Part shown: positions 19,711 through 21,240 of the stretch, piece by piece
How positions within the stretch are numbered: position 1 is the stretch's first letter
Layout of the letters: the number at the start of each line of letters is the position of its first letter
NCBI GenBank assembly: GCA_963692775.1
Contig: OY839116.1
Location: forward strand, 1,990,544 to 2,054,543
Length of the DNA: 64,000 nt
Direction: 5' to 3'
Source: Dehalococcoidia bacterium
GTDB taxonomy: Bacteria > Chloroflexota > Dehalococcoidia > UBA2979
Position numbers and translations under genes: made by a program
Notes under the pieces: generated by a model
What the model was told of the DNA's origin: nothing
The model's database searches: none
Seen by the model: only the letters and a program-made list of their open reading frames with translations

Positions 19711-21240
19711 ATGCGCTTGCGGGTTCCCGCGCCTCCGCGGCTACGGTCGTTCGTGCTCCTCGCGCTGCTCGCCGCGGCGTTCGCCTTCGCGTCCCTCGCC
19801 GACGCCCCGCGCAGCGAAGCCGATCCGCTCGACCTCGGCGAGGAGAACTCCTGGCTGCGCGTCCAGAACATCGGCGGACGCGCCGCCAGCGTCGAGGTCC
19901 AGTTCTTCGATCTCGCGGGCAAGCTGGTCGCCACCGATCGCTGTCCGCGCGCCGGCGGCTGCGAGACGTTGCAGCCCGGCTACGGCTGGTCGTTCTTCCA
20001 GCAGGAGTACGAGCCGCTCGACGAGGGCTATCGCGGCTCCGCGGTGGTCACGGTCGATCAGCCGTTCGTCGCGCTGCTCGCCCGCGACGTCTTCGACAAC
20101 GGGCAGTTCCGGATCGCGGGAGACGCGCTCAGCCTCTACCCCGGGACCGCGACGCACTACATGCCGATCGTCCAGCGCACTGCCGAGTACGTCTCGCGCA
20201 TCTCCATCGAGAACACCAGCGACAGCGGCGAGGCCTGCTTCCAGATCGTCTACTACGCCGAAGGCGCCTCCGACCCGACCGCCATCGATCCACCCGGACC
20301 TACCGAGGGCTGCCCCCGGGGCGGCGAGCTGGTGCCCCCGCGCGGCACGCTGCTGCGCGACGAACACAACCTGCCCGTGCCGGAGGGCTTCGACGGCTCG
20401 GCCGTCGTGCAGGGCCTGCTGACGGCCTCGGGCGTGCCGGCCCAGGACCAGAAGCCATCGCTGGTGGTCGACACTCGCGAGCGCGAGGGCCCCGGGCTCG
20501 CGATGTACCGCGGCATCGACTTCGCCGAGACGAGCCGCGACGTGGTGCTCCCGCTCGTCGACCGCAACGCCAGCGAGGGCCAGACCACCTGGACGACGCG
20601 CTTCCGCATCTTCAACAGCATCCCGCCCGTGTCCAACAAGCTGCTGCTGCTCTTCTTCGGGCACAGCGCCAACGGCGACGAGATCGAAATCGAGCATGAG
20701 CTCGATGTGATCTCCGCGCTGACCTGCGACCAGCGCTTCGATGGCGTCGCCGGTTGTCTGCCGGAGGGCGTCTCGCTGCCGGATACCTTCTACGGCTCCG
20801 TGCGGATTCGCGCGGAGTACCCGATCGCGATCGTCGCGCAGCGCCGCTCCGCGAGCGGCGCGCTTGGCGACTACCGGGGATTCACCGCCGCCGAGGCCGC
20901 GCGCGAGGTGGTGCTGCCGGTGCTGAACAAGAACTTCGGACCCTGGGGCGGCTTCGACGGCTGGAACTCCTGGTTCCGCGTCGTTGCCTTCGATGGCTCC
21001 CGGGCGCGCATCCAGATCCTCTACTTCTCCAAACACTTCCCGCACGGGCGGCTGTCGCCCGGCTTCACGGTCGACCACTACCGCACGCTGCGCCAGTGGG
21101 ACGATGCGACGCTCCCCGACGGCTGGGTCGGCGGCGCGGTCGTGATCGCGGACCGCCCGGTCGTCGTGATCGCCAACCTCGAGAGCGACGTGTTCCAGGG
21201 CGACCCCGTGATGCTCTACAACGGAATCGCCGCACAGTAA
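19711..21240 (+). CDS. Secreted protein built from four tandem repeats of an uncharacterised domain of about 120 aa
   Basis: Signal peptide MRLRVPAPPRLRSFVLLALLAAAFAFASLADA. Four repeats each end in a ...GSAVV/GGAVV...VVLP... pattern. The N-terminal 92 codons of ORF 19435..21240 are upstream extension. Confidence 0.6.
   Translation: MRLRVPAPPRLRSFVLLALLAAAFAFASLADAPRSEADPLDLGEENSWLRVQNIGGRAASVEVQFFDLAGKLVATDRCPRAGGCETLQPGYGWSFFQQEYEPLDEGYRGSAVVTVDQPFVALLARDVFDNGQFRIAGDALSLYPGTATHYMPIVQRTAEYVSRISIENTSDSGEACFQIVYYAEGASDPTAIDPPGPTEGCPRGGELVPPRGTLLRDEHNLPVPEGFDGSAVVQGLLTASGVPAQDQKPSLVVDTREREGPGLAMYRGIDFAETSRDVVLPLVDRNASEGQTTWTTRFRIFNSIPPVSNKLLLLFFGHSANGDEIEIEHELDVISALTCDQRFDGVAGCLPEGVSLPDTFYGSVRIRAEYPIAIVAQRRSASGALGDYRGFTAAEAAREVVLPVLNKNFGPWGGFDGWNSWFRVVAFDGSRARIQILYFSKHFPHGRLSPGFTVDHYRTLRQWDDATLPDGWVGGAVVIADRPVVVIANLESDVFQGDPVMLYNGIAAQ

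Follow-up and report, generated by a model that had tools for sequence, protein, structure and literature searches.

What kind of protein is encoded by a gene whose product carries an apparent export signal and four tandem copies of a domain that no current family model recognises, and is this gene a passenger of the tRNA gene and the toxin-antitoxin locus beside it? This question was raised by a 64,000-nucleotide stretch of DNA from a Dehalococcoidia bacterium (lineage UBA2979; GenBank assembly GCA_963692775.1, contig OY839116.1, positions 1,990,544 to 2,054,543 of the forward strand), hereafter the window, whose G+C content is about 70% throughout. The gene in question, here named the tetrad gene, was read as an open reading frame (ORF) of 509 codons, with an ATG at position 19711, a stop codon ending at 21240 and a purine-rich, Shine-Dalgarno-like GGTGAAGGG located 5′ of the ATG. 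On balance, its repeat is filed as a diverged domain of the ASRAH superfamily, by a fold match, by transitive profile matches and by the presence of the Pfam ASRT and DUF5719 families in relatives. This superfamily was defined in 2009 by De Souza, Iyer and Aravind around the proteins ASRT (2II7) and TM1070 (1NC7) (PMC2739507). By most tests the tetrad protein belongs to it, yet outside its three described families. What is new here is that the secreted tetrad stands alone, that its two inner domains are strongly remodelled and that its gene has a conserved synteny of its own; the fold itself is not new.

A first reading of the DNA, made from the sequence alone (the sequence-only reading), had proposed four collinear repeats of about 120 residues that share a conserved motif skeleton. 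The motifs were found as described, those of the GSAVV type at residues 109 and 229 (GSAVV), 362 (GSVRI) and 474 (GGAVV), and those of the second type at residues 151 (MPIV), 279 and 401 (both VLP). The spacing of the motifs along the protein is 120, 133 and 112 residues. The self-comparison that had been proposed as a check on the repeats gave a divided outcome. A BLASTP search of the protein against itself (word size 2, E ≤ 100) showed no off-diagonal match, because the repeats are too diverged for this method, and Smith-Waterman alignment calibrated by shuffling, together with profile comparison, was needed to detect them. Smith-Waterman alignment between the four segments R1 to R4 (300 shuffles each) gave z values of 13.0 for R1-R4, 10.5 for R2-R3, 7.4 for R1-R2 and 5.0 for R3-R4, the values for two pairs being low (3.2 for R2-R4 and 0.8 for R1-R3). 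The same four pairs were joined by hhalign comparison of the repeat profiles derived from 51 orthologs, with 97.4% for R1-R4, 96.7% for R2-R3, 92.9% for R1-R2 and 84.2% for R3-R4. All four repeats are therefore connected transitively, and the presence of four homologous copies of about 110–130 residues, as judged from these alignments and from the beta-rich model described below, was confirmed.

A full-length AlphaFold2 (AF2) model built on the 51-sequence ortholog alignment was all-beta, with a predicted local distance difference test score (pLDDT) of 90.2 and a predicted template modelling score (pTM) of 0.87; the mean pLDDT of the third domain was about 97. Eight strands were seen in each of repeats 1–3, and repeat 4 showed fewer separate elements, with long merged strands. 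The pTM value suggests that the four domains would be packed against each other in a fixed and compact manner. The model of a single repeat (residues 41–160, repeat 1) had a pLDDT of 84.5 and also eight strands, and a Foldseek search of the PDB with it gave 1NC7 (TM1070) the highest TM-score (0.61/0.62, root-mean-square deviation (rmsd) 3.0 Å, 103 columns, probability 1.0). Over the chains of 1NC7 the query- and target-based scores were TMq 0.58–0.61 and TMt 0.60–0.62 with an rmsd of 3.0–3.3 Å over 103–104 sequential columns, and the remaining PDB matches all had TM-scores below 0.45. The models thus agree with beta-sandwich modules, a point that the sequence-only reading had named for checking. 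MmpS5 (8em5), which heads the single-repeat list by E-value, was rejected on superposition, with a TM-score of 0.37–0.44 and an rmsd of 6.1 Å as against 0.61 and 3.0 Å for 1NC7. In the search with the full-length model, CD109, complement C5/C4 and an adhesin tandem repeat (E 3e-7 to 4e-4) were likewise rejected, because TM-scores of about 0.1 (rmsd 22–42 Å) are those of generic strings of beta domains; the sole good domain-sized match was again to 1NC7.

Three families of ASRAH domains have been described: solo cytoplasmic proteins that form tetramers, secreted amidases of Chloroflexi with four tandem copies and actinobacterial surface lipoproteins with two copies, so that the secreted versions occur as dyads or tetrads (PMC2739507). 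In the solo tetramers of ASRT and TM1070 the ligand cleft is partly formed by the dimer interface (PMC2739507). The statement of the sequence-only reading that the repeat could not be placed in a known family held for the Pfam and NCBIfam models and for the sequences in the PDB, but not for this published superfamily, which fits. The gathering thresholds of the curated Pfam families PF07100 (ASRT) and PF18986 (DUF5719) were not reached by the tetrad protein, a profile search of the PDB sequences gave chance-level matches only (E ≥ 0.3), and a phmmer search of the PDB with an ASRT-type repeat from a relative gave no match.

The connection was made through relatives. A search of 1.84 billion representative proteins with the family profile gave 1362 relatives at E ≤ 1e-3, and one distant relative (P0199) matched PF07100 with E 1.3e-12 and 48 bits (cutoff 25) on a repeat that is also matched by the family profile. 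PF18986, which we take to be the model of the actinobacterial lipoprotein family, was found on the repeat region in 19 of the 93 relatives scanned. A generic repeat profile was assembled from 258 repeats of distant relatives, collected with hidden Markov models (HMMs) of the tetrad protein's own domains, and its consensus reads ...P...k...GWntgiqVQN.g...AtVTitYyd..G......LP.GF.GSAvVtSdQPivAvVN...Y.g. It was compared with an ASRT family alignment of 122 sequences, for which the ASRT sequence was verified as identical to 2II7; the sequence of TM1070 was taken from a printed alignment. The generic profile matched the ASRT family alignment with 91.8% and E 7e-7 over 72 columns (hhalign).

Alignment to the generic HMM placed the four domains, ASRT and TM1070 in one shared register. 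The nearly invariant Asn that ends strand 2 and stabilises a tight turn (N32 in TM1070, N38 in ASRT) corresponds to N53 and N168, both invariant, to N302, present in the majority of the orthologs, and to A426 in domain 4. The segment AHVEITIYY of ASRT corresponds to ASVEVQFF, and its IP...FASVIQSNVPIVV corresponds to LD(E)GYRGSAVVTVDQPFVAL. The motifs found in common with the ASRT register are xQN-G...AxVxhxFY, LPxGFxGSA and QPhhV. No Trp could be aligned with the conserved one that follows a polar residue in strand 1 (W7 of TM1070) at the hhLPhh strand, which reads YMP, VLP and VLP in the tetrad protein and corresponds by position to GYIP in ASRT; the Asn-ending strand is the one that begins with the conserved Trp residues of the tetrad family (W48, W294, W418/W421). 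In the comparison with ASRT and the generic profile the VLP strand, which the sequence-only reading had placed at the end of each repeat, aligned as the first strand of the following domain. The motif itself thus stood and its assignment was shifted, and this register sets the domain limits at about residues 38–147, 148–274, 275–396 and 397–509 (Table 1).

Table 1. Features of the tetrad locus in the window (percentages for the four domains are hhalign values against the generic repeat profile and are partly circular, as explained in the text)
Feature	Coordinates	Strand	Evidence and remarks
Gene of the four-domain (tetrad) ASRAH protein, 509 aa, stop included	19711..21240	+	ORF and translation
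Candidate Sec-type signal peptide or N-terminal membrane anchor, residues 1-32	19711..19806	+	Sequence reading and ortholog pattern
ASRAH domain 1, residues 38-147	19822..20151	+	99.5%, E 2.5e-22; invariant strand E45-N46-S47-W48-x-R50-x-Q52-N53; C78/C84
ASRAH domain 2, residues 148-274	20152..20532	+	98.6%, E 9e-16; diverged, with insertions; R163, N168; C176/C201
ASRAH domain 3, residues 275-396	20533..20898	+	99.3%, E 9e-21; W294, R297, R299, N302; C339/C349
ASRAH domain 4, residues 397-509	20899..21237	+	99.7%, E 4e-27; G417-W418-N419-S420-W421-x-R423; no Cys pair; Asn at end of strand replaced by A426
tRNA-Pro (CGG)	18722..18798	-	ARAGORN
vapC (PIN), 18893-19303, and vapB-like antitoxin, 19300-19575	18893..19575	-	PIN Pfam E 4.6e-15
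RNase HI gene (rnhA)	21285..21776	+	Pfam RNase_H E 7e-33; 44 nt 3′ of the tetrad gene

The N-terminus of the tetrad protein, MRLRVPAPPRLRS-FVLLALLAAAFAFA-SLADA-PRSEADPLDLGEENSW, has the layout of an export signal, with an Arg-rich n-region (four Arg), a 14-residue hydrophobic core (FVLLALLAAAFAFA) and candidate AxA cleavage sites at 27/28 or 32/33. All 51 aligned orthologs retain this layout, the sequence being otherwise variable, and no Cys of a lipobox was found near the signal in any of them. The full-length model showed a helix at residues 9–30 with low-confidence flanks. Three Cys pairs (C78/C84, C176/C201 and C339/C349) were invariant across the family in the ortholog alignment. Because of this signal pattern and these Cys pairs, the sequence indicates an exported, disulfide-bonded protein, with the signal either cleaved or serving as an anchor, in agreement with the secretion that had been proposed for it. 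The mature protein is acidic (isoelectric point (pI) 4.7, 52 kDa).

Repeats were counted with the generic profile in the 150 best of the 1362 relatives, 89 of which were apparently complete. The number of repeats was four in 78 of these 89, three in six, five in two, eight in two and twelve in one, and by these profile counts the tetrad of domains is the recurring unit. Stand-alone tetrads had a length of about 450–530 aa. In other relatives the tetrad was located C-terminal to Peptidase_M23 (P0208, P0210), Peptidase_S8 (P0228, P0270), LVIVD (P0251) or Invasin/Big_1 parts (Invasin_D3/Big_1 in P0165 and P0266), or N-terminal to CarboxypepD_reg or RCC1 parts; the partners Peptidase_M23, Peptidase_S8, LVIVD, Invasin/Big_1 and CarboxypepD_reg all belong to secreted or surface contexts. 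In distant tetrads the HMM of domain 1 was the best match of the first repeat in 52 of 65 cases, and that of domain 4 was the best match of the last one in 47 of 65, a correspondence of domain order that may reflect an old tetrad or may be due to end effects.

Two further observations were made on relatives with many copies. The relatives with more than five repeats have multiples of four (eight in P0199 and P0242, twelve in P0230), which suggests that whole tetrads were duplicated as units. Three giant proteins, P0169 (5258 aa), P0188 (3912 aa) and P0195 (3201 aa), were matched by the family profile in 21–27 stretches, the best of which covers profile positions of about 296–368, a part of domain 3; the generic HMM did not recognise these stretches as full repeats.

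The close family comprises 198 homologs of about 500 aa with 53–85% identity to the tetrad protein, and all its annotated members are annotated as 'hypothetical protein'. It was found in at least 146 species-representative genomes, all of them metagenome-assembled genomes (39–84% identity to the window protein), and 80 of these 146 genomes were fetched. The genome labels were nearly all Dehalococcoidia or Chloroflexi/Chloroflexota, with three others ('Phycisphaerales', 'Thermoflexus hugenholtzii' and 'uncultured bacterium'), and the Dehalococcoidia carriers include marine, sponge-associated, lake and groundwater lineages. The locus labelled 'Phycisphaerales bacterium' (L075, QZJT01000141.1) keeps the AIG2, amidotransferase, tRNA-Pro and rnhA neighbours described below on a Dehalococcoidia-like contig, and its label is probably a binning or labelling error.

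The mean ortholog identity of the tetrad protein was 61%, as compared with 61% for the glutamine amidotransferase and 60% for the AIG2 protein encoded nearby, in loci in which both genes were comparable, and in the comparison set of RNase HI it was 58% against 71% for RNase HI. The identities of the tetrad protein correlated with those of its neighbours (r = 0.89–0.94), and the dN/dS values of the tetrad gene against five close orthologs were 0.18–0.26. The tetrad gene is a vertically inherited core gene of Dehalococcoidia under purifying selection and not a gene of an accessory island.

The gene order around the tetrad gene was surveyed in 85 related loci, tRNA-Pro being checked in ten. The gene for RNase HI, rnhA, follows the tetrad gene immediately and in the same orientation in 82 of the 85, including the most distant ones (UBA2979, about 40%; 39–41% identity), a linkage tighter than that of any other neighbour. 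In some loci (L004, L005) rnhA adjoins or even overlaps the tetrad gene, no terminator-like site was seen in the 44-nt gap between the two in the window, and they are probably co-transcribed. This conserved arrangement pairs the gene of an exported protein with that of a cytoplasmic nuclease.

Upstream, tRNA-Pro was found on the opposite strand in nine of the ten loci, at 140–380 nt in eight and at about 920 nt in L006, which carries vapBC like the window; it was absent from the tenth (L081). The vapBC pair, whose vapB-like antitoxin had no Pfam match, was present in eight of the 85 loci, all close relatives, and was lacking in L008, a locus with 83% identity; vapBC is therefore a recent insertion between tRNA-Pro and the tetrad gene. 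A C26 glutamine amidotransferase gene and an AIG2/GGACT gene were frequent further upstream. The sequence-only reading had taken tRNA-Pro and vapBC as the marks of an accessory hotspot. Both are indeed neighbours of the tetrad gene, but the gene is core and syntenic and vapBC alone was inserted. A tRNA-linked accessory island as the origin of the tetrad gene was rejected on the synteny with rnhA and tRNA-Pro.

Other features of the window were recorded in passing. At 21897-25067 (plus strand) a flavin amine-oxidase gene comes after two squalene/phytoene-synthase genes in tandem, a trio that resembles the HpnC-HpnD-HpnE set for three-step squalene synthesis; its first gene, the only one searched, was near the tetrad gene and rnhA in 10 of the 85 loci, all with at least 80% identity. 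An N6/N4 DNA methyltransferase gene at 16494-17435 (minus strand), with no obvious restriction partner seen nearby and with a homolog in four of the 85 loci, may be mobile or an orphan. The 99-nt 'tRNA-???' with a four-base anticodon (cgcg) called by ARAGORN at 29181-29279 (minus strand) lies in a GC-rich repetitive stretch antisense to the ORF 28369-30900 (SBP_bac_5) and is most likely a false positive. A search of the window for another copy or a paralog of the tetrad gene was negative.

What, then, would such a protein do? With moderate confidence we favour a non-enzymatic, extracytoplasmic module, a stand-alone ASRAH tetrad that would bind, or serve as a scaffold for, an envelope glycan or another small ligand. 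In this proposal the four domains would pack as one compact body that mimics, in one chain, the homotetramer of solo ASRT or TM1070, and in each domain a pocket would lie on the second strand, on the face that carries the ligand-contacting residues in TM1070. There, His25 and Cys29 sit on the Asn-ending strand. In the shared register, the putative pocket-face residues at these positions and at the alternate ones of the same face are N46, W48, R50 and Q52 in domain 1, all invariant, V161, R163 and S165 in domain 2, T295, R297 and R299 in domain 3, and N419, W421 and R423 in domain 4, and an invariant Arg is present on the putative pocket strand of all four domains, joined in domains 1 and 4 by further invariant residues of the Asn/Trp/Arg/Gln set. 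Asn, Trp, Arg and Gln are typical of sugar-binding chemistry. The predicted pockets would suit a sugar, and, given the invariant Arg in each domain, that sugar could be acidic or the ligand could be phosphorylated. The attachment of tetrads to peptidoglycan hydrolases (M23, and the amidase described in PMC2739507) and to secreted proteases suggests, by analogy, that envelope polymers are their targets. The tetrad protein might accordingly be the stand-alone counterpart, at the cell surface, of the tetrads fused to secreted wall hydrolases and proteases.

Several observations weigh against this proposal. The scan of the tetrad protein with Pfam and NCBIfam returned zero families even at E ≤ 10. 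Direct hhalign comparison of domains 1–4 with the 122-sequence ASRT alignment was weak (52, 4, 4 and 35%, in the expected register), so the homology rests on the intermediates and the fold; the best 120 ASRT homologs are all at least 75% identical to ASRT, which makes the ASRT profile shallow and probably limits these probabilities. The values of 98.6–99.7% obtained for the domains with the generic profile are partly circular, because the generic set was gathered with HMMs of the same domains, and the Foldseek E-value for 1NC7 was modest (6e-3). For a simple binding module the conservation is high, with a mean column identity of 62% and numerous invariant polar positions. Both the geometry of the pseudo-tetramer and the orientation of the pocket side chains were deduced from the alternation of residues along the strands and not observed. 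Sugar binding by ASRAH domains is a prediction of 2009 and not an experimental result (PMC2739507), and the only partners that experiments have described for ASRT are its rhodopsin and DNA (PMC8660804).

Part of the evidence can be read in other ways. A protein that is exported, acidic, all-beta and compact, that occurs in at least 146 species of Dehalococcoidia and in which no enzymatic domain was detected could be the main building block or anchor of an envelope resembling a surface layer (S-layer), and not a lectin or a sensor of ligands. Peptidoglycan is absent from some Dehalococcoidia, whose surface layers consist of protein, and this would fit such a structural role. S-layer proteins, however, usually diverge fast, whereas the tetrad protein is conserved like the neighbouring cytoplasmic enzymes, and neither an SLH domain nor any other known anchor was detected in the Pfam scan. 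Since a scaffold that binds glycans would also be a structural protein of the surface, the two explanations overlap, and as an explanation distinct from the binding module we consider the structural role unlikely. An evolutionary rate equal to that of neighbouring enzymes speaks, on the other hand, for an enzyme, and an undescribed active site lying between the four domains, acting for example on an envelope polymer, could account for the long list of invariant residues (E45, N46, S47, R50, Q52, N53, D126, R163, N168, R258, R267, E273, R297, R299, D340, R365, R378, R389, N408, D428, Y438, Q462 and D498). No catalytic motif or fold match was obtained with Pfam, NCBIfam or Foldseek, the tetrads of relatives accompany catalytic domains that are distinct from them (M23, S8), as binding modules do, and catalysis is neither known nor predicted for any ASRAH domain (PMC2739507). 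An enzyme is in our view quite improbable.

The position of rnhA immediately downstream in 82 of 85 loci, overlapping in some, could point to a function coupled to RNase HI or to nucleic acids, such as extracellular or membrane-proximal binding of DNA or RNA. The invariant Arg on each putative pocket strand would agree with it, and ASRT binds and loops DNA in vitro (PMC8660804). But the tetrad protein is exported and disulfide-bonded, and acidic in its mature form, whereas RNase HI, an ordinary enzyme of the cytoplasm, lacks a signal; moreover, a gene pair in a slowly rearranging region may lack functional meaning, tRNA-Pro being a conserved neighbour too. This coupling is therefore given very little weight. 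Equally little is given to the explanation that the repeats have no relation to ASRT, being adhesin modules of a generic Ig-like or macroglobulin-like type, and that their likeness to TM1070 is convergent. The best full-length Foldseek E-values, those of CD109, complement C5/C4 and the adhesin repeat, the slightly better E-value of MmpS5 than of 1NC7 for the single repeat and the weak direct hhalign match to ASRT all speak for convergence. Against it, the full-length matches have TM-scores of about 0.1 and an rmsd above 20 Å, MmpS5 superposes poorly as compared with 1NC7, the Pfam ASRT model exceeds its curated cutoff on repeats of relatives, the generic profile reaches 92% with ASRT, and the register and motifs are held in common.

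A bolder reading was also considered, in which the tetrad would be more than a passive module for glycan binding. It would be a part of the envelope that defines the Dehalococcoidia and that they cannot do without, and its activity would be new, residing in an enzyme or receptor site between the domains or in a surface partner whose expression is deliberately coupled to that of RNase HI. We regard it as distinctly unlikely; if true, it would provide the first biochemical role for extracellular ASRAH domains.

As for the wider meaning of the binding-module proposal and the assignment beneath it, the ASRAH superfamily was defined computationally in 2009 and has hardly been followed up since; nothing on ASRAH or DUF5719 was found beyond the original work (PMC2739507) in the collection of papers searched. 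The current Pfam and NCBIfam models miss a large and well-conserved branch of the superfamily, which constitutes an annotation gap. By the repeat counts given above, the tetrad, alone or attached to secreted hydrolases, is the unit that recurs in this set of more than 1300 representative protein clusters. In the Dehalococcoidia, a class whose members are mostly uncultured, one such tetrad that stands alone is encoded by a core gene with conserved synteny. With its confident AF2 model the protein is a tractable target for the study of extracellular ASRAH ligands and a basis for a better family model. The results have no bearing on a long-standing open question.

Among known systems, ASRT (2II7) and TM1070 (1NC7), which belong to Pfam PF07100 (formerly DUF1362), are similar to the domains of the tetrad protein in having an eight-stranded beta-sandwich of about 110–125 aa, a strand 2 that ends in Asn and a tight turn, then AxVxhxFY, and then strands of the form (I/L)P...SAhh...PhhV. 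In both cases the functional unit has four domains, reached through a homotetramer in ASRT/TM1070 and through four tandem copies in the tetrad protein. ASRT and TM1070 are single-domain and cytoplasmic with a SHEshChhN signature, whereas the tetrad protein is, as predicted, exported and disulfide-bonded and consists of four fused, diverged copies, in which the positions of the His and Cys of TM1070 are occupied by N46/R50, V161/S165, T295/R299 and N419/R423 in domains 1–4, respectively. The genes differ in context as well, the tetrad gene being found with rnhA and tRNA-Pro, and those of ASRT/TM1070 in sugar-metabolism operons or with a rhodopsin.

The N-acetylmuramoyl-L-alanine amidases of Roseiflexus, Chloroflexus and Herpetosiphon (family 2 of PMC2739507) share with the tetrad protein their origin in Chloroflexota, secretion, four ASRAH repeats and a proposed binding to carbohydrates of the envelope. 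The comparison with them is by description only, and by it the tetrad protein differs in lacking an amidase or other detected domain, its tetrad spanning residues 38–509, in its diverged domains 2 and 3 with insertions and Cys pairs, in its class, Dehalococcoidia, and in the conserved synteny of its gene. The actinobacterial ASRAH lipoproteins (family 3 of PMC2739507) are likewise extracytoplasmic and multi-copy with no enzymatic domain. They are dyads, however, with a lipobox Cys, additional N- and C-terminal extensions and linkage to WhiB, glycosyltransferase and inactive zincin genes, whereas the tetrad protein has four domains, no lipobox and no DUF5719 match, and the neighbours of its gene are tRNA-Pro, vapBC, the RNase HI gene and the HpnCDE-like genes. 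The fused tetrads of relatives carrying M23, S8, LVIVD or Invasin/Big_1 parts have the four-repeat unit in common with the tetrad protein, with the consensus GWxTxhxVQN...AxVTxxYY...LPxGFxGSAxVxSxQPhhxxVN...Y.G. There the tetrad is appended to a catalytic or adhesin part, whereas the one encoded in the window has no such partner, and its conservation within its clade is much stronger.

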